This document shows, piece by piece, positions 16,273 to 42,410 of a stretch of 64,000 nucleotides of DNA (within the stretch, counting starts at the first letter, position 1; every line of letters starts with the position of its first letter). The notes under the pieces were generated by a model. It had not been told where the DNA came from. It made no database searches and saw only the letters and a list, made by a program, of their open reading frames with translations. The stretch spans positions 15,060 through 79,059 of the forward strand of contig JALGXW010000011.1 in the NCBI GenBank assembly GCA_029821875.1, read 5' to 3'. The position numbers and the translations under genes were made by a program. This DNA comes from Candidatus Hebobacterum abditum (GTDB taxonomy: Bacteria > Armatimonadota > Hebobacteria > Hebobacterales > Hebobacteraceae).

Positions 16273-16734
16273 GTCGATCCCTCCCAGTATTGCTCTGGGA
16301 ACCGACATGCTATCTTTGCTGTGCACAGCACAGCAGAGGTGCTGTCAGTCCGTGGGGTCTGCTGCGCCGAGCTCTCATGCCGCAGTACTCTCGCGGCCTT
16401 CAGCGCAAAACAGTCCCTGCTTGTTTGTTCCACAACCGGGGCGAGGACACAGATATCGTACAGCCAGGGCCCCTGAAAGCGACGTCTAGGCCTGTCTGAG
16501 CCGGAATGGCGATTCGCGCGCGGCTGCCGGCAGAGGCCTGAGAGGACATCGGCCGGGGAGTGCGACCATGCAGGTCCGGCCCTGGCGCTGCAGAAGACAC
16601 CTCCACGTCAGCTTCCCTGAGTTCTGCGAGCTGCCCGCGGCGGCACCCCCGTGCTGATGGCGGCCTGCGTGGGCCCTCGCCGGGAGCACGGGCGAGCCGA
16701 CGGGGACACCACGACACAGAGGGGATTCAGCACG

Positions 16735-19700
16735 ATGCTTGGGCGAGGCAGACATTCCTATCCTCATATTCTGGTAGCCTTCCTGCTTGCGGCGGGCGTG
16801 CTATGCGCGCCGGCGCTGGGCGATTTCGAGTTGCCCGGTGCCGCGGGTCGGGCGGTATGGGAGGCGGAGGAGGCGGAGCAGGTCGACGCGTGGGAAATCA
16901 GCGCGCCCGGCGCGAAGGGCGCGCGGTACGTGCAGCCCAGCACCACGCACGGCGAGGCGACGCTGCTGTTCCCGTTTGAGGCAGAGGGGGCAACGACGCT
17001 GCGAGTGCGGCCGGTGTGGTGGCGCAACGGAGAGCAGAAGCTCGCCCGGCGATTCCCCTATCCATTGGCGAGGAAGCCGGGGCCGGACGTGGTGGACTTC
17101 GTCGGGGGGAAGGTGTTCTGCACCGCGCCGGAGGCGGGGAACGTGCTGATCGTCGGTGCGGCCGAGGAGAAGGTAGTGGGGTCAGTGGCGGTGGGCGGAT
17201 ACCTGACCGACCTCGTAGCGGATCGCGAGGCGGGGAAGGTGTACGTGGCCGATGCGCTTGGCGACCGGGTGGTCGTGATCAACGCCGAGCGGCCAAGCGT
17301 GGTGGGGGGATTCAGCGTGTCGGGGAGCCCGTGGGCGCTTGCGCTGGATGGCGGGACTCTGTACGTCGCGTGTCGTGATGGGAAGCGCGTGGTCGCGCTC
17401 AGCGCGGCGTCGGGCGAGGTGAAAGGGGAGGCGCACTTCGAGGCCGCACCGATCGGTGTGGCGCTGGTGGGGGAGGGGGAGAAGCAGCTAGTCGTCCGCT
17501 TCCAAGAGCAGGCGTTTGATGTCTTCACGCTGGAGGAACTGACTCCGGACGAGGAGCGGTTCGCGGCCCTCGACATGACCGGCAAGCCGCCGGCCGGCTG
17601 CGGCGGGCCGACGTGTGACTGCAAATGGGTGGAGGCGGTGGGGCCGCACCAGATCGCGATCGTGAGTGAGAAGCGACGCGAGATCGTGGATGTGAGCGTC
17701 GTAACGCGTCGGCCGGAGGCGGCCGGTCTCGAGGGGCAGCTGCCTGAGAACCCAGGGCCCTGTGCACTCGCGATGATGTACATAGGGGAGCCGCCGCGCA
17801 AGCAAGTGGGGTTCTTCACCGCGCCGAGCAGGGGACTGGTGGGAGTTGTGGACCTCGACAACGGCGTGCTTGAGGACCCAGTTCTCGTGGGAGGGTATCC
17901 GGCGGGGCTGACGCGCGATGAGGATAACGAGAAGTTGTACGTGTGTGATGCCGCGGGCGACCGGGTGGTGGTGATTGATGCCGCAACTCGGCAGGTGGTG
18001 CGCGAGATCGCCGTCGCCGGGCAGCCCTGGTCGGTCGTGCTCGTGAAGGAAGTGGCCTGGCAGCGCCCCGGTGATTGGCAGCCGCGGCGGGGAGAGGGGC
18101 CGATCATCGAGCCAACGCAGGTGAACCGGCTATACGTGGCCTGTCGCGAGACGGAGGAGCTAGTTGCGATCGATCTGGAGACGGAGGAAGTCGTGGCACG
18201 CGCACGACTACGGGGTGAGCCGAGCCGGGCAGAGTTCGTGTCAATGCCATCTCCCGCCTGGTGGCCGGTGATGGCCGATGATCGGATCCCATTCGCGCTC
18301 CACCCGCGGCTGGCCGTGGCAAGGCGGCCGGTCTGGATCGACCCGGAGACGCTGGCGGCAACAGCTGCGCCGTCGGGCACCCTCGATGCCTTGCCGCGGC
18401 GGACCGAGGCGCAAGTCCCCGTGGGCGGCGCGACGAAGACGTTCGCCGCGGACAATGAGCTCGTCTTGGGCGTTGATGGAGAACGCTGGATCGACCTGAG
18501 CGAGGCGGCGGACGCGCAGCGGATGGCGGCCCGGCCGCTGCACGCGAAGGAGATGCCCGGCACGATCACGGTCTCGCTCGACGAAGGACCCGAGTACGAC
18601 TGGGCGCGTAGCATCTGGACAGCACCGGACAGCGAGCTGTTCCTGGTCAATGACTCGGACGAGTTCTGGCGCTACAACGCGGTGAGCGTGCCTGTGGAGC
18701 CGGGCAGGCACGTCCTCCGGGTGAAGGCGCACAGTCCCTACGCGCGGTTCGATGCGCTTGTGGTCAGGCGGTCGCTGGAGCCCGATCTGCTGATGGAGGT
18801 AGTTCCCGAACCGCGCGCAGTGCACGACCAAGTGCCACTCGCGTCATACCAAGGCGTGTTCTACGACGAGGAACCGGTGCGGTTCACGGTCGCGGTGACC
18901 AACAGAAGCGAGAAGCCGGTCCGCCTGCAGTGGGGAGGTTCCCTGCGCAACTACCTGGGTGAGGTGCTGGAGGAGTTCGGGGACGAAGAGGTGCTGACCG
19001 TCGAGGGGGGAGATACCGTCACGATGCCGCTGGCGTTTGAGCCCGAAGAGACGGGCCGGTTCGCGCTGAGGGTGGGTTGTGTCTCCTGGGGGGCACCGCG
19101 GGGGACGCTGGTCAGGGACGTGCGCTTCGTTCGGCTGCCCAAGCTCGAGCATCCGCGTCTGTTCTGGCGCGCAGACGAAGAGAACGACATCCGGGCGCGC
19201 ATCGCGCAGTACCCGAACCTGTTTCGGCGCTACGGCGAGTGGCTGGAGCGGATGGCGCAGCGGGAGGGCAGGTTCCCGGAGCGGTTCCTGCCCCCGGGGA
19301 TCACGCGGGACGAGCTGATGGCGGCTGCGCCGGAGGACATGCCGCAGTGGGAGAAACGGGAGGGCTGCGGCTGGCGGATGTATGAGCTCGGGTGGCGGGT
19401 GTTGGCCGCTCAGTTCGTGCAGCGCTTCCTGAAGCCGGACAGCGCGACGCTGAGCAGCAAGATCGAGGGACTGCGCGGCGCGGAGAGGGCCCAAAGCTAC
19501 ATCCAGTACCACCACCACGGCCCCTTCTTCCCCGGGACCGCGGCCTCACTGGTGGACTTCGCTCCTGGGGAAGCACGGCAGGAGATGAAGCTCGACGACT
19601 TCTTCGAGCAGCACATGGGGGACACGAACACACTGCCGTGGACCCTGGTGATGATCGAGGAGCCGCTGACACCCGTAAAGCGGGCGCTTGTCTACGAGTT

Positions 19701-21348
19701 GGCGACATGGACGACCAATGCAGAGAGGTACTTCGAGGCCCGTCGGGGGGAGCGAGGCGGTCCGTGGTGGCTCGACCCGTATACAGGATGCCGGTGCCCG
19801 AACAGCGGGTACACCATCAGCTTCGTGCTGATGAGCAACTTCCTCGGGGAGCCGCGGGTGTTCGAGAACCCGATCTTCCGCGGCTACCTCACGTTCCAGC
19901 GATACGCCGACCCGATTCGCGACAACCGCACACTCATGCCCGGGCGGAGAGGGCCGAACGGCGAGCCGTGGCGGTGGCTGCTGAGCGCGCTCTGCCGGCA
20001 TCCTGTCGACAAGTCGGTCTACGGATGGGAGGAGTGGGTCGAGACGATGGAGGGGCCTTTGCCCGATGACGAGGAAGCGGCCGTGGATAGTCTCATGGCG
20101 CTGGAGGGGCGCGAGCTCGCCGGGCCGCTGTACGGGAACACGCACTACTTCGTGTCGGGCGTGGCCGTGCCGGTAGCACTCGCCCTTGGCTGGTACGATC
20201 CTGGCGCGCCGGAGGTGCAACCGGACGAGCTGCCGCCAACGGCCGCCTTCGATGTGGAGGGCTGGGTGGCGATGCGGTCCGGCTGGGATTTCCAGGCGAC
20301 CGAGGTGACGTTCGTCTCGGGCGTGAGGGACCACACGACGCGACACAAGCCAAACCACGTCACGATTGTGAAGAGTGGGGAGTTTCTACTCGGGACGCCG
20401 AGCCTGCTTTGGGATGACGGCAACAACGTGGGCGTCTGGGGGAACAGCGTCGTGGTCGGTGACGACTGGACCGAGCAGTGGCGGATGAACCTCCAACACC
20501 CGCGGGATGGCGAGCACATGGTTATCAACCGGTTCTCCCCGTGGAACTGGACCTACATCGCGCGGGACCGGCACATGGCGGGGTACAGACCTTCGGAGCA
20601 GGCCTGGGGCGGGGGACTGAACCTGCACGGACACACCGAGACGATGTTCATGAACGAGGGTCGATTGCTGGCCTACCAGACGTGGCCCGACCTAGACTAC
20701 GTCGCCGGCGACGCGAGCAACGCTTGGCGGTGCGAGGAGGTGGCACAGCTCGACCGGCAACTCGTGTTCCTCAAGCCCGACGTAGTAGTCGTCTACGACC
20801 GGGTGAAGCTCGGGCCGGAGGCCGATGAATCCCGGTGGCTGGCTGCAACGGGGCTGCATCTGCAGATCGAGGGGAGCACGTTCCGCGTGTTGAGCCGGTC
20901 ACGGTGCTTGGTGGGGGCGGTCGTGCTGCCAGACGAAGCGGTGCTCGCGACCCCAGAGCTCCCGGAGGACGCGTGGTATTGGCGCGGACAGCAAGCGCTC
21001 GAAGTGAGGCCGCCCGGACCGCGCGACGAAGTGGAATACCTCGTGGTGATGCGAGTCGGCGAGCCATGGCCGGCCTACCCGCGGCCGGAGCTGATCGAGC
21101 GTGAGGGCCGGGTGGGCGTGAGGCTGACGCTGGAGGATCGGGAGATCGCGGTGGCCTTCAACCGCGGCGGTGCGGTCGGCGGTAGAGCCACCATCGAAGC
21201 GGACGGCACGGTGAGCCGCTACGATCTTCGCGAGGAGATCGTAGACAGCTACGCGGGGTGGCAAGATGACCCGCGGCACGAGAGGTGGGAGCAGGAGCGG
21301 TTTGGGTTCATGGTGCCCGAGGTAGCGGCCAGCTCGGGGCGACACTGA
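16735..21348 (+). CDS. secreted YVTN-type beta-propeller repeat protein fused to a heparinase II/III-like (polysaccharide lyase-like) region
   Basis: Signal peptide MLGRGRHSYPHILVAFLLAAGVLCAPALG. Repeated motifs GKVYVADALGDRVVVI / EKLYVCDAAGDRVVVIDA. The later region, with HPRLFWRADEENDIRARIAQYPNLF and HKPNHVTIVKSGEFLLGTPS, resembles DUF4962 plus heparinase II/III. Confidence 0.8.
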   Translation: MLGRGRHSYPHILVAFLLAAGVLCAPALGDFELPGAAGRAVWEAEEAEQVDAWEISAPGAKGARYVQPSTTHGEATLLFPFEAEGATTLRVRPVWWRNGEQKLARRFPYPLARKPGPDVVDFVGGKVFCTAPEAGNVLIVGAAEEKVVGSVAVGGYLTDLVADREAGKVYVADALGDRVVVINAERPSVVGGFSVSGSPWALALDGGTLYVACRDGKRVVALSAASGEVKGEAHFEAAPIGVALVGEGEKQLVVRFQEQAFDVFTLEELTPDEERFAALDMTGKPPAGCGGPTCDCKWVEAVGPHQIAIVSEKRREIVDVSVVTRRPEAAGLEGQLPENPGPCALAMMYIGEPPRKQVGFFTAPSRGLVGVVDLDNGVLEDPVLVGGYPAGLTRDEDNEKLYVCDAAGDRVVVIDAATRQVVREIAVAGQPWSVVLVKEVAWQRPGDWQPRRGEGPIIEPTQVNRLYVACRETEELVAIDLETEEVVARARLRGEPSRAEFVSMPSPAWWPVMADDRIPFALHPRLAVARRPVWIDPETLAATAAPSGTLDALPRRTEAQVPVGGATKTFAADNELVLGVDGERWIDLSEAADAQRMAARPLHAKEMPGTITVSLDEGPEYDWARSIWTAPDSELFLVNDSDEFWRYNAVSVPVEPGRHVLRVKAHSPYARFDALVVRRSLEPDLLMEVVPEPRAVHDQVPLASYQGVFYDEEPVRFTVAVTNRSEKPVRLQWGGSLRNYLGEVLEEFGDEEVLTVEGGDTVTMPLAFEPEETGRFALRVGCVSWGAPRGTLVRDVRFVRLPKLEHPRLFWRADEENDIRARIAQYPNLFRRYGEWLERMAQREGRFPERFLPPGITRDELMAAAPEDMPQWEKREGCGWRMYELGWRVLAAQFVQRFLKPDSATLSSKIEGLRGAERAQSYIQYHHHGPFFPGTAASLVDFAPGEARQEMKLDDFFEQHMGDTNTLPWTLVMIEEPLTPVKRALVYELATWTTNAERYFEARRGERGGPWWLDPYTGCRCPNSGYTISFVLMSNFLGEPRVFENPIFRGYLTFQRYADPIRDNRTLMPGRRGPNGEPWRWLLSALCRHPVDKSVYGWEEWVETMEGPLPDDEEAAVDSLMALEGRELAGPLYGNTHYFVSGVAVPVALALGWYDPGAPEVQPDELPPTAAFDVEGWVAMRSGWDFQATEVTFVSGVRDHTTRHKPNHVTIVKSGEFLLGTPSLLWDDGNNVGVWGNSVVVGDDWTEQWRMNLQHPRDGEHMVINRFSPWNWTYIARDRHMAGYRPSEQAWGGGLNLHGHTETMFMNEGRLLAYQTWPDLDYVAGDASNAWRCEEVAQLDRQLVFLKPDVVVVYDRVKLGPEADESRWLAATGLHLQIEGSTFRVLSRSRCLVGAVVLPDEAVLATPELPEDAWYWRGQQALEVRPPGPRDEVEYLVVMRVGEPWPAYPRPELIEREGRVGVRLTLEDREIAVAFNRGGAVGGRATIEADGTVSRYDLREEIVDSYAGWQDDPRHERWEQERFGFMVPEVAASSGRH

Positions 21349-21696: not shown

Positions 21697-23433
21697 ATGA
21701 CTGTGTCCGCGGAGACGAACAGCAGCGATAGCGAGAAGCGGCCTGCAAAGGCGCTCCTTGTCCTTCGAGTCCTGCTCGGGATGGCGCTTGCTCCGGGAAT
21801 CCTCATTGCCGTGGTTGCGGCCGCGTCCGGCCTCGTCGAGAGCGCCGACGCGCTCGATCTCTGGATGTCGGGCGTGGCCGACATGCTCGCCCTGCGGGCC
21901 GAGACGCTGGCTCTGCTTGTCGCGCTCGTAGTCGCCATCCCGGGTCTGATGCTCGCGGGTCTGCTAGCGCGCCCGCGCTGGTGGTTGCCGGCCGTGCTGC
22001 CCTTCCTCCTTGGCTGCCTCCTTTGGCACGTGATGATGCGCGACATCAGCGCAGGATACGCCTACCCTTACTACATACAGCTGCTGTCCGTCTTGCACGT
22101 GGCGGGGACGGGTGCCGCCTTGTTCTTCGGCTGGCTGGGCTCGCGCCTCGCGCGCGGTGCCGGGGCCAGACAGACGTTGATTGCCCTGGTGACCCTATGG
22201 ACTGGCGGAGTCTGTCTCCTCGCGCTGGGCCGCGCGGAGATGGGGGATGACTCGGCCCTCGCGTTCTGGTTGTTCGCCGCGGGCTTTGAGTTGGGCCTGG
22301 GCGTGGTCGCGCTCGTCGGTTACTGGACGAGAGAAAACAGAGACCTTCTCCAGGTGAGCTGGGTGCTCTGGTGTCTCGTGGCCCTGGCCGCGGTTGCCGT
22401 TGGGCGTGGACTGGCGGCGGCCGGAGCGCTGGCCTGGTACTCTCCGCTGCCAGCGCTTGTGGTCGGGGGCGCGGTGTTCTCTGCGCTTGGCCTCGTGGCG
22501 GCCGCGCTGAGGCGCTCGAAGGTGGCCAAACGCCTCACGCGGGCCAGGGCCGTCCTCGGTCTCGCGTGTGTTGCGTCAGCAGCGGTAACCATGGCGCTGG
22601 CCAGGCTCTTCCCTCACCCCGCGCTTGCCAGCGCCGGTGGCTCGGGCTACGTCCTTCTGTCTGTTTCCCCAGGACTGGCTTCCTCCGTCGAGTTTCGCGC
22701 CGACCGCGTGCGGATAGCAGGCAGCCCAGACGGCCTCGACGACGCGCCATGGGTGGCGAGCGATTCCGTCGCCCCACCATACACGACCTTCTTGCCAGTC
22801 GGGGTGCCAGTGCCGCGAGAACAGCTGCCACCTGGGTGTGCCGGAGTGCAGGCGCGCTTCCAACTGATAGACTTCGATTATCTCTCGTTCGGCGCGAGAC
22901 GATGGGGCAAGCGCGCGGCGCTCCACGACATGATGGGTATAGTTGATGTCGGCTATCTCTTCAGGGATGCAGGGGGAGGCGACTGGACATACTGGGTGGG
23001 CGCGGGCTGGTTTGACATATCGGCGTCGGCGGATGGATCAAAGTTGGTGGAGATTCCTGCCTCTCCCCCCGACCGACCTGAGCTGACACTCTCGGTAGAC
23101 CTCGAGCGCGAGGAGAGGCACCACGTCGGGTTCGGCCTACGGCTCACGAGCGCAGACCGCATCATCGAAGACGTCGAGCGGGACGGCGAGAGCGTGTTGG
23201 CCAGTCTCGTCGTCTCTGATGCATCCGGCAATAGAGTGGTCTCCACGCGGGGCACGCTTGACGATCTGGGCTTCACCTGAGGGGGCCCCTGCTACTCCGT
23301 GCGAGTAGCCGACCCGGGCAGCTACGTGTGCAAGGCTGCGATCGACGTTGGCCCGTTGGGCGGCATGCTTGAGGCCGAGTCGGCCTTCACGGTCCCCCAG
23401 CGGCCGCAGACACGTCGCCGGCTGAGCTACTGA
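21697..23433 (+). CDS. polytopic membrane protein with C-terminal extracytoplasmic domain; putative selenoprotein (in-frame TGA at 23278..23280)
   Basis: The ORF to 23280 is clear, with about 8 hydrophobic helices followed by a soluble domain. Reading TGA as Sec adds 50 codons (GGPCYSVRVADPGSYVCKAAIDV...) that are homologous to the post-TGA tail of the 24543 gene. A hairpin lies 10 nt after the TGA. Confidence 0.6.
23291..23309 (+). promoter_or_regulatory. putative bacterial SECIS hairpin
   Basis: GCUACUC-CGUGC-GAGUAGC is a perfect 7-bp stem with a 5-nt loop containing GU. It starts 10 nt after the TGA at 23278..23280. Confidence 0.55.
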
Positions 23434-23601
23434 CAGCGTCGTGTGGCGGCCTGCGGCGCACTGGCGCCGAGGGGGAGTTTGTGCTAACCTACGTGGAAGC
23501 CGACTGCGGCTCTCTAAGGGACACGACGCGCCTCGATCCCTCACGGACAGAGGGAGGGCTCGCTTTCGATAGAATGTGTCGCGACGAAAGGAGCTGCTGA
23601 G

Positions 23602-24480
23602 ATGAGATGGCTGCCTGTGCTGTTGCTGGTCGCGCTACTGCTTCCTGCTCCGGCCGAGGGTTCCTCGGAAGAGCCAGTGGCGGTCACTGCCCTTCTCTCG
23701 GGCGAGGTTGCACCTCTGGTCATCACGCTCGGCAGCCTCGACAGCGGGTGGTGCCGGTTCACCACTGGTGGGGGCGGAGGCACGGACATCTACTCCGCGA
23801 TGTATGGCATACAGCCCTCCCCCTACTACACAAAGGGAGAGACCGTCTGCGCTGGCGACCAAGTGTATCTGCTCGCCTACAAGACCGAGACCCGTCAGGC
23901 AGGCTACTTGGCACTCATGACTGGCCAGCGAGACATGGAGGATGTCCCCGCGGTCACGGCGGAGACGGAGCTCGGCCTGTGTCTTCTCAATCTCGCCACC
24001 ATCGGCAGCTTCCTTGACATCAGCGCCTTCGACCTGGAGTCGGAGATCCAACGCTACGCGGAGGCCGCCGAGCGGCTGGAGACCACTCTCGCGGGGATGC
24101 GGGGCGGCTATGATTACGAAGAGGGGGCCGCCGAGGACAACCTCGACGAGATCGCTCTGGCACTCGAGATGTACACCATCGACCACGGGGACGTTCTGCC
24201 TCCTATGTCTACGCAGGAGGAGTGGCAGGAGGCGCTAAGCTGGTACGTGGCTGACTTATCGGTCTTTGTCGATTCGGCGACGGCCGAGCCATATCCCATC
24301 AATGCATCTCTGTCAGGTGTGGAGCTGGCCTCGATGGAGGAGCCTGGGGAGATCGTCGCCGTCTACGAAGCTCAGCTTCGTGACGACGAGACACGAAAGG
24401 TCGTCTTTGCCGACGGCTCCACTGGATACATCGCCGAGGACGCCTGGGCCCAGATGAAGGCTGCATCGGGCATCCAATAA
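23602..24480 (+). CDS. secreted hypothetical protein
   Basis: Signal peptide MRWLPVLLLVALLLPAPAEG and SD GAAAGGAG upstream. The C-terminal half (NLDEIALALEMYTIDHGDVLPP...VFADGSTGYI) loosely resembles the conserved C-terminal module of DUF1559/pseudopilin-like proteins. Confidence 0.75.
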   Translation: MRWLPVLLLVALLLPAPAEGSSEEPVAVTALLSGEVAPLVITLGSLDSGWCRFTTGGGGGTDIYSAMYGIQPSPYYTKGETVCAGDQVYLLAYKTETRQAGYLALMTGQRDMEDVPAVTAETELGLCLLNLATIGSFLDISAFDLESEIQRYAEAAERLETTLAGMRGGYDYEEGAAEDNLDEIALALEMYTIDHGDVLPPMSTQEEWQEALSWYVADLSVFVDSATAEPYPINASLSGVELASMEEPGEIVAVYEAQLRDDETRKVVFADGSTGYIAEDAWAQMKAASGIQ

Positions 24481-24542
24481 GTTGATGGCCGGCAGGCAAG
24501 GGCCATGAGGGGCCGCCTTTTGGAGGCGAGTTAGGACCTGGA

Positions 24543-25373
24543 ATGCGACACGCGCTGAAGCTCAGTCTGGCATGTATGCTGCTGGCAGGGGCGCTGTTAG
24601 CCCCTGCCCACGCCGCGCCGAAGGCGGTCTACGTCAAGCTGACGTCAGGCACTGACGGCGGGCCGGTGGCGTACGCGGAGCTTCGAGGCAACGAGATCCG
24701 CGTGGCTCCCACCGTCGAGCGGCTCGTCGACGCAGAGGCCATAAAGGCAAGTGATGCCGGCCTCGAGCGCCATGGCAACATGGCCTATCAGCACGGCACG
24801 TTCCCTTCCGTCGACCTCCCGGCGCAGGACCCCGAGGTCGCGAAGGTGTCCGCCACATTCTCGGTGTGGCGCGCGGTGAGTCGGAGCCGGAGCCGACGTT
24901 GGGAAACAGAGAACTTCAGGGTCAGCGCCGAGATATCGTTCGCTAAGCGCGGCCCCGGCGGCGCGGTCTGGACCTATGTGTTCAGCTCCCACGCCGAGGC
25001 GAGCGCGGCGACGCAGCCGTCGAAGGCCGCCAGCCTCGCCATCCCGCCCCTTGAGAAACTCCAACTGAGTATGGAGACCCAGGTGAAGGGGAGAGAGGCG
25101 GGCATTGGCCTGCGGCTGAAGTCGGGCGAAGTCGTTCTCACCCACGTGCGCCGCAACGGCGATGCCGCCGTGTGCACGCTGGAGATCTATGACCGGCAGG
25201 GACAGAAGGTGAGCACCCACAAGGGCGATCTCCAGAAGTTCGGGTTTACCTGATCGGGACCATGCTACTCCGTGAGAGTGGCCAATCGAGGATCGTATGT
25301 AGTCAAGGCGACGGCGGATGTGAGCGCGGATGGCCAGCCGCTGACCGCGGAGGCGAAGCTCTTCGTTCGCTGA
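24543..25373 (+). CDS. secreted protein, paralog of the C-terminal domain of the 21697 gene; putative selenoprotein (in-frame TGA at 25251..25253)
   Basis: Signal peptide MRHALKLSLACMLLAGALLAPAHA. Reading through the TGA adds SGPCYSVRVANRGSYVVKATADVSADGQPLTAEAKLFVR. A hairpin lies 10 nt after the TGA. A rho-independent terminator follows the extended stop, not the TGA. Confidence 0.6.
25264..25282 (+). promoter_or_regulatory. putative bacterial SECIS hairpin
   Basis: GCUACUC-CGUGA-GAGUGGC is a 7-bp stem with one U-G wobble replacing the U-A pair seen in the paralog, and a 5-nt loop with GU. It starts 10 nt after the TGA. Confidence 0.55.
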
Positions 25374-25397
25374 ACTGCTGGCGCGGATACTGCAATG

Positions 25398-25432
25398 GCG
25401 CCACGGCCCGGATTGGGTCGTGGCGCTTTCTT
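25398..25432 (+). terminator. rho-independent terminator candidate
   Basis: 8-bp stem GCGCCACG ... CGTGGCGC followed by TTTCTTCGTG, located 25 nt after the extended stop at 25373. Confidence 0.55.
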
Positions 25433-25564: not shown

Positions 25565-26794
25565 ATGGAGCGCGAGCGGACAACAGCCTTCAGCGAAGCC
25601 TGCAACGCCGGAGAGCCGGCCGTCGCGCCGGACGGTAAGGGAGACCCGTTCGCCTGGTTCGCTTCGATGCTGCCTAACTGCCTGGAGTACGCGAAGGCGG
25701 CCAAAGCGGAGGGGCGGCCGATCGTCGGCATAACGTGCGAATACACGCCGAGAGAACTGATAGTCGCCGCCGGGGCGGTCCCGGTGTGCCTGTGCGGCGG
25801 CTCCGCGGACACCATTCCTACGGCCGAGCGAGACCTTCCCGCCAACCTGTGTCCGCTGGTCAAGTCCACCTATGGCTACCACGCAGAGAAGGGCAACCCA
25901 CTCCTTGAGATGGCCGATCTGCTTGTGGTCGAGACGACCTGCGACGGCAAGAAGAAGATGTACGAGCTGATGGCCGAGAGCCGGCCCGTGCATCTGCTCG
26001 AGCTGCCGCAGAAGGCGGAAGACGATGCTGCCTTCGAGCACTGGGCGGGCGAGCTTCGCGCCCTTGTCGCCGTGCTTGCGGAGAAGCTCGGCGGCTCGCC
26101 GTCCCAGGATGGCATCGAGAGCGCAATTCGAGCCATGAATCGCGAGCGATCGCTGCGGCGCGACCTGGCCGCCCTGATGCAGTCGGACGCCCCCCCGCTA
26201 ACCGGACGGCAACTGCTCGACTGCCGAAGCATCATCGCCGGCGTTCCTGTGGCTCTGGAACAGTATGAGCGGACGCTGGACATGCTTCGGGCCGGGGAAG
26301 CGCGTGGCGAGATGAATTCGGGGGTGCGCGTGCTGATGACAGGCGTGCCGATCGTCCGGGGAGCGGAGCGCGTTGTGGACATAGTCGAAGGAGCCGGCGG
26401 CCTCGTCGTCTGCATGGAGAACTGCACAGGTGTCAAGCCGATTCTCGACGACGTCGCAGAGGGTACGCCCGATCCGATGCACGCGATAGCCGAGAAGTAC
26501 TTCGCGCTGCCCTGCTCGGTGATGACGCCGAATGAGCGACGGCAGACGACGCTCCGTCAGCTGGCGGAGGAGTACCGACCACAGTGCGTGATCGAGCTCA
26601 TCTGGCAGGCCTGCCTGACCTATGACGTTGAGTCGTTCTTCATCCGGCGTCTGGCGGAGGAAGAACTCGGGATACCGTATCTTCGAATCGAGACGGACTA
26701 CTCGCCATCCGACTCCGCGCGCATTGAGACACGGGTGCAGGCTCTCTTCGAGACGGTGCGCGGGCGGTCTGTTGCCGAGACGAGAAGAGGATGA
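25565..26794 (+). CDS. 2-hydroxyacyl-CoA dehydratase family / double-cubane-cluster (YjiM-like) protein
   Basis: 409 aa with conserved Cys positions (ITCEYTPRELI, VCLCGG, NLCPLVKS, ETTCDGKKKMYE). It is a single subunit immediately followed by an activase gene. Confidence 0.75.
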   Translation: MERERTTAFSEACNAGEPAVAPDGKGDPFAWFASMLPNCLEYAKAAKAEGRPIVGITCEYTPRELIVAAGAVPVCLCGGSADTIPTAERDLPANLCPLVKSTYGYHAEKGNPLLEMADLLVVETTCDGKKKMYELMAESRPVHLLELPQKAEDDAAFEHWAGELRALVAVLAEKLGGSPSQDGIESAIRAMNRERSLRRDLAALMQSDAPPLTGRQLLDCRSIIAGVPVALEQYERTLDMLRAGEARGEMNSGVRVLMTGVPIVRGAERVVDIVEGAGGLVVCMENCTGVKPILDDVAEGTPDPMHAIAEKYFALPCSVMTPNERRQTTLRQLAEEYRPQCVIELIWQACLTYDVESFFIRRLAEEELGIPYLRIETDYSPSDSARIETRVQALFETVRGRSVAETRRG

Positions 26795-26797
26795 GCC

Positions 26798-27571
26798 TTG
26801 ATCTGTGCTGGCATTGACGCGGGCTCCAGGACGACCAAGATCGCCCTCATGGGAGACGGCGACGAGGTGCTGCTCGCGTCGGCGGTGGGCGAGCCGGGTG
26901 CGTGCACCGCGACTCAGGCGGAGGAGCTGTTCGAGAAGACCGTCGCGCAGCACCAAGTGGACCGGGACCGCATCGGGCGCGTCGTCGCAACGGGATACGG
27001 CCGCGCGGCACTACAGATGGCCGATACGACCGTCACCGAGATAACATGCCATGCCCGCGGGGTGCAGTTTCTCGAGCCAAGAGCGGCCACCGTGGTGGAG
27101 ATCGGCGGACAGGATAGCAAGATCATCCTGCTGGACGGGAACGGCGGGGTCCGCGATTTCGTCATGAACGACCGTTGTGCGGCTGGCACAGGTCGATTCC
27201 TGGAGATGGTCGCGGAGCGCCTCGACGTCGGGGCCGTGGGGCTTGGCGAGTTGGCGGCCGGGAGTCAGAAGCCAGCGACCATCAATCCCACTTGCGCCGT
27301 CTTTGCGGAGACTGAGATCATCGGACTGCTATCGGCCGGCGCGAAGCCCCAGGACGTCGCGGCCGGCGTGCAGGAAACCGTCGCCACCCGCATGGCGACT
27401 CTGGCCGTAGGCAGGGCCGAGCGGCCCGTGGTCTTCGCCGGTGGCGTGGCGCTGATACCGGGGATGGCCAGCGCGCTGAGTCGCGCCCTTGCGTGTCAAG
27501 TAGAGGTGGCGAGCGCGCCGCAGCTCACCGGAGCCATCGGAGCGGCGCTCATAGCCTGCCGGGAGGCATGA
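26798..27571 (+). CDS. CoA-substrate-specific enzyme activase (BcrAD/BadFG/HgdC/YjiL-type ATPase)
   Basis: ICAGIDAGSRTTKIAL, VVEIGGQDSKII, NDRCAAGTGRFLE (cluster-ligating Cys), CAVFAETE. TTG start. Confidence 0.85.
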   Translation: MICAGIDAGSRTTKIALMGDGDEVLLASAVGEPGACTATQAEELFEKTVAQHQVDRDRIGRVVATGYGRAALQMADTTVTEITCHARGVQFLEPRAATVVEIGGQDSKIILLDGNGGVRDFVMNDRCAAGTGRFLEMVAERLDVGAVGLGELAAGSQKPATINPTCAVFAETEIIGLLSAGAKPQDVAAGVQETVATRMATLAVGRAERPVVFAGGVALIPGMASALSRALACQVEVASAPQLTGAIGAALIACREA

Positions 27572-27997: not shown

Positions 27998-29629
27998 ATG
28001 GTGGCAGGTACGTCAAAGCGGGCGCGAGTGATGGGTCGGTCTGCCCGCGTTGGGCACTGCATCTGCGATCCGAGGAAGCCGTGCCCCTGCGACGTCTTCC
28101 TGGAGCAAGACGTGTGTCTCTGTGCGGGCGAACGCCTGCCGGACGCCGACAGCCCCACGGAGTCGATCGCCTTGACCAAGCTAGTGAAGAACGCTGGCTG
28201 CGCCTCGAAGATCCCTCCCGCCTACCTGGCATCGATTCTCTCCCGCCTACCGAGGATAGAGGACCCGCGGCTGCTCGTCGGGAGCCACACAGCGGACGAC
28301 GCCGGGGTCTTCGAGATCGCCCCTGATCTGCTCCTGGTGCAGACGGTCGACGTCTTCGCTCCCTGTGTCGATGATCCGTACGAGTTCGGACAGATCGCGG
28401 CCTGCAACTCGCTGAGCGATTGCTACGCAATGGGTGGGACCCCGCTCACTGCGATGTCTGTCATCGGCTACCCCGCGCATACCTTGAGCGATGAGTGGAT
28501 GTGCCAGATCCTACGGGGGGGCATGGACAAGCTGGCGGAGGCCGATGTGGTCCTCGTCGGCGGCCACAGCGCCAACGACGACGATATCAGGTTCGGCTTC
28601 GCAGTGACTGGCATCGCGAGCCAGGCCGACCTGATCACCAACGCAGGCGCGCAGCCGGGTGACCTGCTCATCCTGACGAAGCCCCTGGGAACGGGGATAG
28701 TCGCCTTCGCCTCCCAGGTCGGACGCGCCTCGGAGGAGGACAAGCGAGCGTCCGCGGCCTCCATGATGATGCTCAACCGGGCCGCGTCGCAGGTCATGCG
28801 CGAGGTTGGCGCTCATGCCTGCACGGACGTCACGGGATTCGGCCTCCTCGGCCACCTTCGCCACATGGTGTGCGCAAGCCGCGTCACAGCAGAGGTCTGG
28901 TGGGAGAGACTGCCGCTGTTCGAGGGGATCGGGGGATATGCTCTGGACGGCCTGGTCTCCGGGGCCGCCGAACGCAACCGGGAGTTCGCCGGGGAACTGA
29001 CCGAGGTGGGGGAGGCGACCCCGGAATGGGTGTTGGATGTCCTCTATGACCCGCAGACATCGGGGGGACTGCTGATTTCCGTTGCGGCCACATCGGCCGA
29101 GCCCACTGTCTCGCGGCTCAAATCGCTGGGGTGCACCGAGTCCGCCGTAGTCGGCCAAGTGACCGAGGAATCGGAGGGGAGGATACTGGTGAAGAAGGCA
29201 GATGAGAGTGCCGCGAGTGACGCCGTGTCGGGCTCACCCGCGCGTGACAGGGCGGCGCAAGACGACATCGCGTCGGCAGCCTCGCGGAGTGTGCCTGTGG
29301 CAGAGGCGAACACCGAGGAATGCTGCGCGCCTGGCAGCGCTCCCGCCGACGCGAGCGAGACGCAGAGGCGGTTCAGCCAGTTCATGGGCGCCGCCTTCGG
29401 GCCCGGCGCCCTGGACGTGGTTCAGAAAGAGCTCGTCACGATCGCGCTGTCGGTTGCGACGCGCTGTGAGCCATGCCTCAAGGTTCACCTGGACAAGGCC
29501 GAGAAGATGGGAATCTCGGCTGATGAGGTGAAGGAGGCCGCCTGGATGGGCGTGGCCTTTGGCGGCGCCAGCGCGATGATGTTCTGGACGGAAGCATCGA
29601 AGCTGCTGCTTGATGACGAAGGCGCGTAG
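27998..29629 (+). CDS. selD: selenide, water dikinase (selenophosphate synthetase) with N-terminal Cys-rich extension and C-terminal AhpD/carboxymuconolactone-decarboxylase-like domain
   Basis: SelD core: LTKLVKNAGCASKIPP (Cys form of the catalytic loop), DDAGVFE, QTVDVF, GGHSANDDDIRFG, TDVTGFGLLGHL. N-terminal HCICDPRKPCPCDVFLEQDVCLCAGE. The C-terminal roughly 90 aa contain the RCEPC (CxxC) motif typical of AhpD-like domains. Confidence 0.9.
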   Translation: MVAGTSKRARVMGRSARVGHCICDPRKPCPCDVFLEQDVCLCAGERLPDADSPTESIALTKLVKNAGCASKIPPAYLASILSRLPRIEDPRLLVGSHTADDAGVFEIAPDLLLVQTVDVFAPCVDDPYEFGQIAACNSLSDCYAMGGTPLTAMSVIGYPAHTLSDEWMCQILRGGMDKLAEADVVLVGGHSANDDDIRFGFAVTGIASQADLITNAGAQPGDLLILTKPLGTGIVAFASQVGRASEEDKRASAASMMMLNRAASQVMREVGAHACTDVTGFGLLGHLRHMVCASRVTAEVWWERLPLFEGIGGYALDGLVSGAAERNREFAGELTEVGEATPEWVLDVLYDPQTSGGLLISVAATSAEPTVSRLKSLGCTESAVVGQVTEESEGRILVKKADESAASDAVSGSPARDRAAQDDIASAASRSVPVAEANTEECCAPGSAPADASETQRRFSQFMGAAFGPGALDVVQKELVTIALSVATRCEPCLKVHLDKAEKMGISADEVKEAAWMGVAFGGASAMMFWTEASKLLLDDEGA

Positions 29630-29702: not shown

Positions 29703-29801
29703 GGGAGCGGATTGGTTCTGGTGGACCTCCCCGGGCTTCAAACCCGGCGGTGGGGCCCTGATAAGGTCCTGGGTGGGTTCGATTCCCACACGCTCCCGCC
29801 A
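29703..29801 (+). tRNA. selC: tRNA-Sec (anticodon UCA)
   Basis: Anticodon arm CCGGG-CUUCAAA-CCCGG with UCA at positions 34-36. Long variable arm GGGCC-CUGAUAA-GGUCC. T arm GUGGG-UUCGAUU-CCCAC. Acceptor GGGAGCG/CGCUCCC, then G73 and an encoded CCA. It lies between selD and selA. Confidence 0.85.
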
Positions 29802-29850: not shown

Positions 29851-30756
29851 ATGAGCACGAGCGACCGCCGACAGCGACTGCTGGAGAAACGGCCACGAGT
29901 GCAGCTCTACTCCCTCGTTGTGCTCAACAGCTACATCCTCGCACCTGTCGGCAAGTACATCTGCCTGCCTGTGCTGAACTGCTACGCCTGCCCGATTGGG
30001 ACCGTCGCTTGTCCGGTCGGAAGCATCACCGCCTTCGTTATGGTGCCCTACTTCCCATTCTACGTCATCGGCATGCTGGGCATCGCCGGCCTTGCCGTCG
30101 GCAGAGCCTTCTGCGGATGGGCCTGCCCGTTCGGGTACGTGCAGGATCTGCTCCATCGCATCCCTGGCCGCAAGTTCGGGCTGCCTCGTGCACTCGACGC
30201 GACGAAGTACGTCTTGCTAGTCGTCCTTGTGGTGGGCCTTCCTCTTCTGCTTGGCAACCCGTACGACTTCACGGGAACTGAGCGAGTCGTCTTCGAGGCA
30301 GGCGGCACGTGGGACTACTGTGCACTGGTGTGCCCTGTCGGGACGCTCCAGGCGGGTGTGCCCGGCCTCATAGCCAATGCCGACTTCCGCGAGAAGGCAT
30401 CGTGGCGCACGGCGAGCAAGCTCGCCATCCTCGCTATCGTGTTGGCCCTCGCCGTGCTGTCGCACCGGAGCTTCTGCCGAGTTCTGTGTCCGCTTGGCGC
30501 ACTCATGGCGATCGCCTCGATTGTCAAGCTGCCCCGGCTTCGCACCGATCAGGGCGCGTGCACGCGCTGCCTGCGCTGCCGCCGCACATGCCCGACCAGC
30601 AGTCGCTTAGTACCAGAGAATGCCGGCGAGGGCGAGGCCACCTCCGAGTGCGTTCTCTGTCTCGAATGTGTGCGGGTCTGCCCTGAGGCCGGCGCGCTCT
30701 CTGCTTCCCTGGGAGGGAAGTCCCTGGTGACATCCGGAGGAAAGACGAGTGAGTAG
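29851..30756 (+). CDS. NapH/NosR-type membrane 4Fe-4S polyferredoxin
   Basis: CxxxCP motifs (NCYACPIG, VACPVGS, GWACPFGYVQDLL, LVCPVGT, VLCPLGA) within TM segments, plus two ferredoxin motifs CTRCLRCRRTCP and CVLCLECVRVCP. Confidence 0.8.
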   Translation: MSTSDRRQRLLEKRPRVQLYSLVVLNSYILAPVGKYICLPVLNCYACPIGTVACPVGSITAFVMVPYFPFYVIGMLGIAGLAVGRAFCGWACPFGYVQDLLHRIPGRKFGLPRALDATKYVLLVVLVVGLPLLLGNPYDFTGTERVVFEAGGTWDYCALVCPVGTLQAGVPGLIANADFREKASWRTASKLAILAIVLALAVLSHRSFCRVLCPLGALMAIASIVKLPRLRTDQGACTRCLRCRRTCPTSSRLVPENAGEGEATSECVLCLECVRVCPEAGALSASLGGKSLVTSGGKTSE

Positions 30757-30877
30757 GAAGACCTGGATACTGGTTGCTGTCGTGCTGTCGGTACTGGCCG
30801 CATGCCTCGCGTATGGCATCTACCTCGGCGACCCGGGCTATGTGTTCGCCAATGCCCTGGCCGTCTGCTATACGTGA
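30749..30877 (+). CDS. possible 42-aa single-helix membrane peptide
   Basis: GTG at 30749 overlaps the polyferredoxin stop. The translation is VSRKTWILVAVVLSVLAACLAYGIYLGDPGYVFANALAVCYT. It is below the track cutoff and has no homology support. Confidence 0.3.
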   Translation: MSRKTWILVAVVLSVLAACLAYGIYLGDPGYVFANALAVCYT

Positions 30878-30898
30878 CCGCTAGGAGAATGACCGCGC

Positions 30899-32323
30899 GT
30901 GTCGCGGCCCAAACCCAACAACGGTGATGACGATCGGTCCGCCCTCCGGCGGCTCCCGCGCGTGGACGACCTCCTCGCGCACCACCTGCTGGCCGACCTG
31001 GTTCGGCGCGCGCCCCGCTCTGTCGCGCTCAGTGCTGCCCGGGACGCGGTGGCCGAGGCGCGGGAGCAGATCCGCCGAGGCGAGGACATGTCCGACCACG
31101 ATTTGGTCGCGGCGCGAGCGGCCGAACTCCTGGAGGGACGCCTGCGGCCGAGCCTCCGTAGGTGCATCAACGCAACCGGTGTCATCCTTCACACTGGGCT
31201 CGGCCGAGCGCCCTTCTCGGCGGCCGCGCAGAGCGCGGTGGCGGAGGTGACGAAGGGATACAGCAACGTGCAGGCCGACATCGCAACGGGCCAGCGCGCC
31301 AGCCGGGAGGCACACGTGGAGTGGCTCCTCGAGCAGATCTGCGGTGCTCCCGCGGCGGTGGTCGTGAACAACAACGCCGCGGCGACGGTGCTCGTACTGA
31401 ACACACTGGCGGCCGACCGAGAGGTCATCGTCTCCCGCGGTGAGCTCATCGAGATCGGCGGAGCGTTCCGTCTTCCCGATATCATCCGTCTGGCGCGCTG
31501 CCGATTGGTCGAGGTCGGCTGCACGAACAGAACACACCTGCGCGACTATGAGCAAGCGATTACAGGGGACACCGCGCTGCTGCTCTCGATCCATCAAAGC
31601 AACTACGTGATCCAGGGCTTTGCCTCTCAGGTGGACATCAGCGAGATCGCCCGATTGGCGAAGTCCCGCAATCTGGTGTGCGCGCACGACCTCGGCAGTG
31701 GGGCGCTGGTCGACCTGCGCCGCTTCGGCTTGCCCTATGAACCTGTGGTGCGGGTGAGCCTGGAGGGGGGCGCCGACATTGCCTTCTTCAGCGGGGACAA
31801 GCTGCTCGGCGGGCCGCAGTGCGGGGTAATCGTGGGCGAGGCCGATCTTCTGCAGTCGATGCGTCAGAACCCCTTCTATCGCACCTTCAGGGTCGACAAG
31901 CTCACGCTCGCCGCGCTCGAGAGTACCCTGCGTCTCTTCTTGGATGTTGACGCACTGCCCGACACGCATCGCGTCATCGCCATGCTGACCGTCCCCGTGG
32001 AAGAGCTGAGGGCCCGAGCCCAAACGCTGGCGGAGACCGCGCGCGAGCGTTGTGGCTCCTGGCTTCGCACAGACGTGCGCGACGGGGAGTCGCAAGTCGG
32101 CGGCGGCTCTCTTGCAGGCCACGCGCTTCCCACTGCGCTCGTGGCGCTCGTGTCCGATCGCGTGTCGCCGCTCGAACTTGCGCGTCGGCTCCGCGCAGGC
32201 GATCCACCGGTGTTCGCGCGAGTCGGGGACGACGCCGTGCTCCTCGATGCCCGCACTATGGAGGCGAGCGACGACGCTCCTCTCGTACATGCCCTGGAGC
32301 AGGTGGGTCGCTCCCTTGGGTGA
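30899..32323 (+). CDS. selA: L-seryl-tRNA(Sec) selenium transferase
   Basis: GELIEIGGAFRLPDI and FSGDKLLGGPQCGVIVG (PLP lysine motif). The 474-aa length fits SelA. GTG start with AGGAGA upstream. Confidence 0.9.
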   Translation: MSRPKPNNGDDDRSALRRLPRVDDLLAHHLLADLVRRAPRSVALSAARDAVAEAREQIRRGEDMSDHDLVAARAAELLEGRLRPSLRRCINATGVILHTGLGRAPFSAAAQSAVAEVTKGYSNVQADIATGQRASREAHVEWLLEQICGAPAAVVVNNNAAATVLVLNTLAADREVIVSRGELIEIGGAFRLPDIIRLARCRLVEVGCTNRTHLRDYEQAITGDTALLLSIHQSNYVIQGFASQVDISEIARLAKSRNLVCAHDLGSGALVDLRRFGLPYEPVVRVSLEGGADIAFFSGDKLLGGPQCGVIVGEADLLQSMRQNPFYRTFRVDKLTLAALESTLRLFLDVDALPDTHRVIAMLTVPVEELRARAQTLAETARERCGSWLRTDVRDGESQVGGGSLAGHALPTALVALVSDRVSPLELARRLRAGDPPVFARVGDDAVLLDARTMEASDDAPLVHALEQVGRSLG

Positions 32324-41700: not shown

Positions 41701-42410
41701 GCCGTGGTCGCCTTCTCCTCTTCCGCCTCCGCCGCCAACTGACGCAGGTCCTCGCGCACCACCCGACGCGGCCCGCCGTGAGGCGAGCTGGACCAGTCCC
41801 TCGGGTCAACGATCTCCACCAATCTGTCGAGCGTGCCCAACCTCTCCATGCGGCGGATAATCAGTTCCCATCCGCAGTCCACGTCCGGACTGATCTCACA
41901 CTTGCCGTCGTTGCTGCCTCCGCATGGGCCATTCAGTATGGACTTCGAGCAGCGGGCAACCGGACAGATCCCGCCGGTCAGATGCAGTACGCAGTTCCCG
42001 CAGCCGGCGCACATCTCCACCCACACACCGGGCTCCGCGGTAGCGCCCAGGAACTTCGTGTTCAGTCCAGGGAATACGGGCACGTCGCCCGACCTCTCCG
42101 CGAGGAAGTTCACCCCGACGCCGCAGGCAAGCGAGAGCACAGCGTCTATGTTCTCATCCCTCACGCGTCCCGGCACGGCTTCGACGAACTCCGGCTCGCA
42201 CTGCCGCATCACGCAGTCCTCCAACACATCCTGCTGTCGGCCCGCTTTCCGCGCGGCGATCCGCAGCGCCGATCCTACGATCTTGGTCTCGGTCTCGCCG
42301 CCGGCCAGACACACGGTGGCACAGCCGCCACATCCGATGACGAGCACCCGTCTGAAGCCCTCTATGAACTCGACGATCTCGCCAAGCGGCTTCCTCTCTG
42401 CTACGATCAT
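41697..42410 (-). CDS. metV: methylene-THF reductase C-terminal domain protein (MetV-like, Zn/FeS)
   Basis: VLVIGCGGCATVCLAGGE and CPVARCSKSILNGPCGGSNDGKCEI are characteristic of MetV. It overlaps both neighbours by 4 nt. Confidence 0.75.
   Translation of the reverse strand: MIVAERKPLGEIVEFIEGFRRVLVIGCGGCATVCLAGGETETKIVGSALRIAARKAGRQQDVLEDCVMRQCEPEFVEAVPGRVRDENIDAVLSLACGVGVNFLAERSGDVPVFPGLNTKFLGATAEPGVWVEMCAGCGNCVLHLTGGICPVARCSKSILNGPCGGSNDGKCEISPDVDCGWELIIRRMERLGTLDRLVEIVDPRDWSSSPHGGPRRVVREDLRQLAAEAEEEKATTA

Follow-up and report, generated by a model that had tools for sequence, protein, structure and literature searches.

Three genes and two in-frame TGA codons

We analyzed a 64-kb stretch of DNA from Candidatus Hebobacterum abditum (Armatimonadota), hereafter the window, with respect to a three-gene operon (genes A, B, and C) in which genes A and C each contain an in-frame TGA that is a candidate selenocysteine (Sec, U) codon. 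A preliminary description of this DNA had proposed three proteins, with two paralogous extracytoplasmic domains containing the TGA codons, and all of these elements are present in the sequence. On the basis of sequence comparison, genes A and C are in our view very probably (probability of about 0.9) true selenoprotein genes, whose family has not been annotated before. Coordinates are window positions, and the operon lies on the forward strand with the following features:

21697-23433, forward strand: gene A, nine predicted transmembrane (TM) helices followed by an extracytoplasmic tandem beta-sandwich, read through at the predicted Sec codon 23278-23280
23278-23309, forward strand: predicted Sec-UGA of gene A (23278-23280), a 10-nt spacer, and a putative bacterial Sec insertion sequence (bSECIS) hairpin (23291-23309) with a 7-bp stem and the loop CGUGC
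23602-24480, forward strand: gene B, encoding a secreted, distant relative of DUF1559 / H-X9-DG proteins, without a TGA
24543-25373, forward strand: gene C, a signal peptide plus tandem beta-sandwich, paralogue of the C-terminal part of gene A, read through at the predicted Sec codon 25251-25253
25251-25282, forward strand: predicted Sec-UGA of gene C (25251-25253), a 10-nt spacer, and a putative bSECIS hairpin (25264-25282) with the loop CGUGA and one U-G pair in the stem
25397-25427, forward strand: intrinsic-terminator-like hairpin of 14 pairs, 3' of the extended stop of gene C

Gene A starts at ATG 21697, matching the start of its homologue in the related locus L001. Its in-frame TGA (23278-23280) comes after ...TLDDLGFT and is followed by 50 further open codons (GGPCYSVRVADPGSYVCKAAIDVG...) up to a second TGA at 23431-23433. 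In gene C the TGA (25251-25253) comes after ...DLQKFGFT, with 39 further open codons (SGPCYSVRVANRGSYVVKATADV...KLFVR) up to a TGA at 25371-25373. As had been proposed, both domains stop at GFT-TGA and are open and mutually alignable beyond it. The C-terminal ~220 residues of gene A are paralogous to gene C at 28-33% identity, and the best-conserved stretch between the two is G-F-T-[TGA]-x-G-P-C-Y-S-V-R-V-A. A terminator following only the extended stop had also been described; the 14-pair hairpin indeed follows that of gene C, and none was detected 3' of gene A.

The product of gene B carries a classical signal peptide and, C-terminally, the motif ...VVFADGSTGYI; a homologue at 37% identity carries the name "prepilin-type processing-associated H-X9-DG protein." Gene B is found beside a beta-sandwich family gene or the gene of a double-cubane-cluster reductase (DCCP) in at least 8 loci.

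Directly upstream of gene A lies an open reading frame (ORF) of 1565 aa (16651-21348). It was rejected as a member of the system, having no Pfam match and no homologue in 66 related loci; by comparison with L001, it looks like an unrelated insertion.

Conservation of the TGA and of the extension

In the homologues of loci L001 to L004 (58-90% identity), both TGAs and both extensions are kept, with the gene A homologues of L001 and L004 retaining the TGA plus the 50-codon extension. Divergence within the extensions of these loci is biased to third codon positions, like that of the upstream coding sequence, and conservation collapses past the second stop, where 38 of 40 codons differ non-synonymously between gene A and L001. 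Across homologues at 25-90% identity, the TGA is retained together with a conserved, coding-like extension.

Using the truncated proteins as queries against 1.84 billion representative proteins, a family profile search retrieved 204 clusters (50% identity), 132 of them with E<=1e-10. Among the best 150 of the 204 clusters, nearly all end at profile position 235/236, with GFT (65), GFG (37), and GFS (15) as the last residues. Genome and metagenome collections were in addition scanned for loci with peptide patterns leaving the Sec codon free (GFTx[GS]GPCY), starting from an alignment of 6 sequences with X at the Sec column and including the DNA of distant members. The codon at the Sec column is TGA in 81/82 motif instances (70 loci), and a Cys codon (TGY) was found in 0/82. 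Homologues with either TGA or Cys at this position had been envisaged in the preliminary description; the TGA form proved nearly universal, and the Cys form did not appear. Members of the GFG subtype have one additional residue (U-G-G-A-P-C) and a 13-nt spacer.

The single sense-codon instance (AGG, L059:1019) has Val in place of the Cys at position +4, differs in its synonymous codons, and has no hairpin, and is thus a natural control for the SECIS assignment. At the Sec column, ten full-length non-Sec homologues have R, P, W, E, E, R, L, A, G, and S; their residues at the Cys column are V, N, R, E, R, R, R, R, A, and R. It follows that Sec is never replaced by Cys and that U and Cys tend to be lost together. 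The Cys at +4 in the U-x-G-P-C motif first noted in the window is common, though not universal, in Sec forms.

These data bear on the possibility that the TGAs are real stops, with products ending in ...GFT and the downstream DNA forming a separate element, for instance a structured RNA or a short ORF of its own. In gene calls and in public annotations, all of these proteins do end at GFT, under the name "hypothetical protein," and the hairpin could in principle serve another role. Termination at GFT with unconserved DNA downstream is, however, not what we observe: the extension is in frame at every locus, diverges like coding sequence, and loses its conservation only after the second stop, while an independent ORF would be without a start codon or ribosome-binding site. 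Moreover, the sense-codon homologues continue through in the same frame, and a truncated product would miss three beta-strands of the predicted fold (see below). We therefore regard true termination as highly improbable.

A hairpin downstream of each TGA

Both TGAs are followed, 10 nt downstream and as originally described, by a similar hairpin (23291-23309 and 25264-25282) of the sequence GCUACUC-CGUGN-GAGURGC, with folding energies of -8.9 (gene A) and -8.5 kcal/mol (gene C). No other site of the window has the composite pattern of TGA plus hairpin, and it was found in 0 of 100 shuffles. According to the published bSECIS consensus (Zhang and Gladyshev, in PMC13188914), the loop has 3-9 nt with a G followed by G/U within its first two positions, the stem has 4-16 bp, the distance from UGA to loop is 16-37 nt, and the minimum free energy is <= -7.5 kcal/mol. 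The hairpins of genes A and C agree with every element of this consensus (loop of 5 nt, G then U at positions 2-3, stem of 7 bp, distance of 17 nt), and compensatory changes are present in the family, so that the SECIS proposal is borne out on both counts. An Rfam scan of the window returned the tRNA-Sec only and no bacterial SECIS match.

Across 61 distinct sequences, the codons that form the hairpin are frozen (Ser TCC in 61/61, Cys TGC in 60/60, Val GTG in 58/61), and the third positions of the flanking Gly, Pro, and Ala codons vary freely. The 7-bp helix is 99.1% paired, which was not reached by any of 500 shuffles. One stem pair covaries (C-G in 45, U-A in 15, and U-G in 1 of the 61 sequences; reached by 0/500 shuffles) and is coupled to a Val/Ile exchange; the U-A variant hairpins of other loci reach -6.6 kcal/mol at best, compared with the cut-off of -7.5. 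Divergent members retain the helix with other letters, as in GCUGCUCCGUCGGAGUAGC in L013 and GGUAUUCCGGGCGAAUACC in L067.

A scan of the window for hairpins with a CGUGN loop returned the two known sites plus one at ~43364 on the minus strand. The latter lies inside an uninterrupted 691-aa ORF (42407-44482) and was set aside.

The selenocysteine genes and their neighborhood

Downstream of gene C, the forward strand of the window carries the genes of the Sec machinery together with several accessory genes:

25565-26794, forward strand: DCCP, a double-cubane-cluster (Fe8S9) anaerobic reductase (NF040772, 390.4 bits versus a cut-off of 350; synteny)
26798-27571, forward strand: DCCP reductase, an acyl-CoA-dehydratase-activase-type ATPase (TIGR00241, 242 bits; synteny)
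27998-29629, forward strand: SelD, Cys form (...NAGCASK...), above the NCBIfam equivalog cut-off
29703-29801, forward strand: tRNA-Sec (selC), by ARAGORN and Rfam (67.3 bits)
29851-30756, forward strand: NapH/MauN-like polytopic membrane ferredoxin (Fer4_5), found between selC and selA wherever this stretch was captured
30899-32323, forward strand: selA (TIGR00474, 530 bits, above the equivalog cut-off)
32330-34252, forward strand: selB (TIGR00475, 380 bits, above the equivalog cut-off)

The earlier claim that the Sec genes lie downstream on the same strand is therefore upheld, with the tRNA-Sec found by ARAGORN as well as Rfam and selD, selA, and selB all scoring above their NCBIfam equivalog cut-offs. 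An organism incapable of Sec incorporation would have contradicted a selenoprotein assignment; here selA, selB, selC, and selD are all encoded. TGA is also the ordinary stop of DCCP, the DCCP reductase, selA, the 1565-aa ORF, and the extended genes A and C, indicating that the genetic code is not reassigned. This speaks against a read-through of the UGA as something other than Sec, be it by a code reassigned to Trp or Gly or by near-cognate decoding. One non-Sec homologue with Trp (TGG) at the Sec column would fit such a reading, but the tRNA-Sec, selA, selB, and selD are present and adjacent, and the hairpin covaries, has bSECIS geometry, and is lost when the TGA becomes a sense codon, leaving non-Sec read-through with hardly any credibility.

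SelD is a three-part fusion of an N-terminal Cys-rich stretch (HCICDPRKPCPC...CLC), a core with the active-site Cys, and a C-terminal AhpD/CMD domain with CxxC. The same architecture is found in L013:6122-7732 and is common to the Armatimonadota and Brocadiia loci. The membrane ferredoxin scores 64-69 bits against the NapH and MauN-type models TIGR02163 and NF007013 (cut-offs of 213 and 234, respectively), with only its C-terminal ferredoxin part matching, and is therefore named NapH-like rather than NapH; the Pfam domain Fer4_5 is present in its homologues.

With respect to taxonomic distribution, named genomes with the family within the Armatimonadota are Ca. Hebobacteria M3-38_Bin_440 (near the window organism, with a 91% identical SelD), CS1-C002, and SPRUCE 339, and those within the Planctomycetota are two Ca. 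Brocadiia metagenome-assembled genomes. In both phyla we observe the recurrent order [gene B], [DCCP + activase-type reductase], selD-AhpD, 1-4 family genes, tRNA-Sec, [MtaC-like corrinoid protein + two MtaA/URO-D-like methyltransferases], NapH-like gene, 42-aa ORF, selA, selB. The tRNA-Sec starts 140-306 nt past the family UGA in 24/56 distinct loci, and in L013 the family gene begins 22 nt after selD. Genes A and C of the window are separated from selC by 4.4 kb, with the DCCP module inserted between the family genes and selD. The linkage to the Sec machinery suggested for the window thus recurs, as the family co-localizes with selD, tRNA-Sec, selA, and selB in two phyla, and gene order shows it to be part of a putative selenium island common to Armatimonadota and Planctomycetota.

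The corrinoid plus MtaA-like module lies between the tRNA-Sec and the NapH-like gene in L010, L013:9708-12632, L015, L049, L055, and L067. In PMC10418091, type I mlp clusters (corrinoid + MtaA-like) are proposed to carry out methyl-selenide demethylation, with some biochemical support, and in Haft and Gwadz (bioRxiv 10.1101/2022.07.06.499078) the NF040772 double-cubane reductases are almost always found in SelD-encoding genomes. The same two kinds of module flank selD and selC here. Neither source, as far as searched, was found to mention the NapH-like gene, the family of beta-sandwich proteins, or the small CxxU peptide presented below.

In L067, genes for an MTTB-family methyltransferase and for a transporter of the glycine-betaine type are also present upstream.

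A second candidate selenoprotein

The 42-aa ORF between the NapH-like gene and selA also ends at a TGA that may encode Sec, with the following features:

30749-30892, forward strand: candidate CxxU selenoprotein with one TM helix, ending ...C-Y-T-U-P-L-G-E (predicted Sec codon 30875-30877, final stop 30890-30892)
30891-30909, forward strand: hairpin GACCGCG-CGUGU-CGCGGCC, starting 13 nt after the small-ORF UGA

This ORF (30749-30874) overlaps the end of the NapH-like gene and ends ...A-V-C-Y-T, followed by TGA, P-L-G-E, and a second TGA. Fourteen distinct TGA versions from both phyla keep the motif C-[FY]-[TS]-TGA-x-L-G, and two tandem TGT (Cys) paralogues in L056 and L057 (F-C-[YH]-R-C-S-L-G...) are both without a hairpin; these forms are a textbook Sec/Cys pair. 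Across loci the hairpin (GACCGCG-CGUGY-CGCGGUC) begins 13 or 16 nt downstream of the UGA, is 98% paired with two compensatory pairs, and has the same CGUGN loop as that of the beta-sandwich family. With a single TM helix and K/R at the N-terminus, the CxxU tail is expected to face outward. Judging from these comparisons, the small ORF (30749-30892) is probably a second, unannotated selenoprotein with a CxxU motif.

The small protein resembles NF040920, the "CD1871A family CXXC motif-containing protein," in its short length and in a CxxC-type motif at the C-terminus, although the match is weak (E 9.5e-4, 19 bits versus a cut-off of 32). It differs in having a predicted Sec in place of the second Cys and in its fixed position between the NapH-like gene and selA. 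A literature search on CD1871A returned nothing relevant.

The GUG in the hairpin loop is the first possible start codon of selA (30899) and lies in the frame of the small ORF, so that the hairpin may also control selA translation. In Escherichia coli, a SECIS-like element upstream of selAB controls selAB translation. The selA start codon in the hairpin, this precedent, and the position of the family gene immediately 5' of the tRNA-Sec in 24/56 loci would all be compatible with a selenium-sensing leader, in which Sec-dependent read-through just upstream of selC, and at the small-ORF UGA upstream of selA, tunes the Sec machinery while the protein itself is secondary. Such a role is nevertheless very unlikely to account for the family: its proteins have 220-580 residues, export signals, and a confidently predicted fold, they form 204 divergent clusters with several paralogues per locus and copies far from sel genes, and genes A and C themselves are at a distance of 4.4 kb from selC.

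Family status, fold, and export

Searches of Pfam and of NCBIfam release 20 (including its curated selenoprotein models) with the read-through proteins (U as C) gave no relevant match at E<=1, the sole near-match besides noise being FlgD_ig (PF13860; 14.8 bits, E 0.028, versus a gathering threshold of 27 bits). All public copies are named "hypothetical protein" and end at the TGA. Among the 119 prokaryotic selenoprotein families tabulated in a 2026 review (PMC13188914, Table 1), no entry has such a motif or architecture, in agreement with the initial impression that this is not a known selenoprotein family. Literature searches on Armatimonadota or Planctomycetota selenoproteins, or on exported selenoproteins beside selC, likewise returned nothing relevant. 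The beta-sandwich and CxxU families and the fixed sel arrangement were not found in the libraries and literature searched, where the families of Haft and Tolstoy 2025 (mSystems) were covered only via NCBIfam and the review table and gave no match.

To obtain a fold, AlphaFold2 was applied to P0110 (...GFT-R-GGPVYSTR...), a naturally occurring homologue that is full-length and has no Sec. The resulting structure (predicted local distance difference test [pLDDT] score of 91.9) is all-beta, with two sandwiches in addition to a signal helix. Residues 246 (Sec column) and 250 (Cys column) are non-strand positions flanking a two-residue bridge. Sec would lie in a tight turn, G-F-T-U-x-G-P-C, with Cys usually four residues on. 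Three strands come after the Sec column (251-254, 259-267, and 276-284), so that a GFT-ending product would lack three of ~8 strands. A thioredoxin-like fold with CxxU/UxxC is not present in the P0110 model, and the spacing of the motif in the family is U-x3-C. Sequence searches of the PDB with gene A, gene B, and the family profile gave no match.

Gene C encodes a classical signal peptide. For gene A, the positive-inside rule applied to the nine predicted TM helices would place the N-terminus inside and the C-terminal domain outside. The TM part of its AlphaFold2 model has low confidence (mean pLDDT of 64.6), and homologues of the TM domain were found only among A-type family members.

Two further arrangements were observed in the family. 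In P0039 (479 aa), the two-sandwich module is tandemly duplicated, with a first copy without Sec (...FALSSMGIPRYS...) and a second copy ending ...DFGFT, presumably followed by TGA. In L054:4262-10600, a bacterial alpha-2-macroglobulin of 1592 aa is encoded immediately upstream of a family gene of the A type (membrane-anchored); macroglobulin domains were also among the non-significant top matches in a fold search with the family model.

Comparison with known systems

Genes A and C share with canonical bacterial selenoprotein genes (e.g., E. coli fdhF) the in-frame UGA, the stem-loop with G-U at loop positions 2-3 and an apical loop beginning 17 nt past the UGA, and the presence of selA/B/C/D in the genome. 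They differ from the canonical families in being unrelated to the 119 catalogued ones, in having no Cys homologues, and in encoding exported beta-sandwich proteins without a thioredoxin fold. The decoding mechanism is thus canonical, and it is the two families and the fixed sel arrangement that are new within the libraries and literature searched.

The closest resemblances to known selenoproteins are local. DUF1573 (PF07610), likewise a domain of the beta-sandwich type, has a UGC motif in which Sec and Cys are adjacent, and the U-x-G-P string recurs in HesB-like selenoproteins (TIGR01911), but neither model matches the family even at E<=1, and the resemblance is confined to a motif of 3-4 residues. 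As an analogue for a possible Se/S carrier, we considered SoxY, an exported Ig-like periplasmic sulfur carrier with a Cys on a C-terminal GGCGG arm. Both are small exported beta-sandwiches with a single chalcogen nucleophile in a Gly-rich stretch; however, no sequence or fold match to SoxY was retrieved, the nucleophile of the family would be in an internal turn followed by three strands, and there is no SoxZ partner.

DsbD and CcdA relay reductant across the membrane to periplasmic thioredoxin-like proteins, and NapH, NosH, and CcoG are membrane ferredoxins. The arrangement described here is similar to these systems in placing the gene of a membrane redox protein next to genes for outward-facing proteins that bear a Cys or Sec motif. 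It differs in that there is no NapG-like partner, the acceptors are not thioredoxin-like, and the link is one of gene order alone.

Proposed mechanism and function

In the mechanism that we propose, the UGA after ...G-F-(T/G/S) would be decoded by SelB and Sec-tRNA(Sec) via the bSECIS hairpin 10 nt downstream, and read-through would supply the C-terminal beta-sandwich with its final three strands. The U...C turn would then be a selenolate/selenenylsulfide site at the outward-facing side of the membrane, which may be kept reduced by electrons from the NapH-like ferredoxin passing through the CxxU membrane peptide. The site may bind or relay a chalcogen or a soft metalloid, most plausibly selenium en route to SelD. 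Taken together, the identity of the genes, the selenium-island system, and the inferred function make up an explanation that we hold to be likely as a whole. Its functional part, an outward-facing selenol redox site relaying a chalcogen or soft metalloid with selenium favored, is by itself offered tentatively. The earlier suggestion of a redox or metal/metalloid-binding module is likewise tentative. We favor a selenium-directed role since sulfur never substitutes for Sec in this family, the gene lies inside the selD...selC unit, and the accessory modules are linked to selenium.

A generic role is about equally likely. The proteins may be genuine exported selenoproteins that are ordinary clients of the Sec machinery, functioning as extracytoplasmic oxidoreductases (disulfide, peroxide, sulfoxide) or binding soft metals (Hg, Cu, As), with their proximity to the sel genes reflecting that the Sec trait is inherited together with its main user. 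Most known selenoproteins are redox enzymes, several of them encoded beside sel genes or in selenoprotein operons (PMC13188914), the U-x-G-P-C and CxxU motifs look redox-active, and many family copies are distant from sel genes. On the other hand, redox selenoprotein families normally have Cys homologues, and none were seen in the beta-sandwich family; the family gene lies within the selD...selC unit rather than merely near it (as with the 22-nt gap after selD in L013); and we found neither a thioredoxin-like or catalytic fold nor further conserved polar residues.

Going further than the relay proposed above, the island could be self-contained, with a Sec machinery that chiefly serves an outward-facing relay with an obligate need for selenium, from the NapH-like protein through the one-helix CxxU peptide to the exported beta-sandwich proteins with their U-x-G-P-C turn, capturing or reducing environmental selenium (or another chalcogen or metalloid) and feeding SelD. 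We think this rather unlikely, although selenium itself as the substrate of the relay would, if true, explain the absence of a Cys version.

Several observations weigh against the selenoprotein assignment or the mechanism attached to it. No homologue of the beta-sandwich family with Cys in place of Sec was found, so that the classic Sec/Cys pairing is missing from this family. The folding energies of the hairpins are ordinary in comparison with shuffles (z of ~0.2-0.6), and the significance of the hairpins therefore comes from the comparative data, not from energy. Furthermore, the C-Y-S-V-R-V-A stretch is largely dictated by the RNA hairpin and is for this reason not to be read as the signature of a protein active site. 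The Cys at +4 is absent in some Sec forms (SAPN, GGAPL, GGTPR, GGRPN, or SGPS after U), which means that a selenenylsulfide cannot be universal. A fold search of the PDB with the family model gave nothing at E<=1e-3, only generic Ig, FN3, and macroglobulin (MG) domains. Many family copies are remote from sel genes (e.g., L020, L054, and L062), and gene order is all that connects the three proposed components (beta-sandwich proteins, CxxU peptide, and NapH-like protein).

Biological significance

If these assignments are correct, two families would be added to the ~119 prokaryotic ones: a large one comprising at least 204 clusters (50% identity) and a second whose members are very small membrane peptides. 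Because annotation pipelines truncate every member as a hypothetical protein, the selenoproteomes of Armatimonadota and Planctomycetota would be under-counted. Being exported, built on a beta-sandwich instead of a thioredoxin fold, and without any Cys counterpart found, the family would be a good test case for comparing selenium with sulfur chemistry. The uniform SECIS element, with the loop CGUGN in both families, would serve as a clean, lineage-specific model in the search for more selenoprotein genes of both phyla. Finally, a family flanked by selD and tRNA-Sec, together with the NapH-like ferredoxin, DCCP, and the methyl-selenide-type methyltransferases, would constitute a concrete gene set for the acquisition of selenium and its delivery to SelD.

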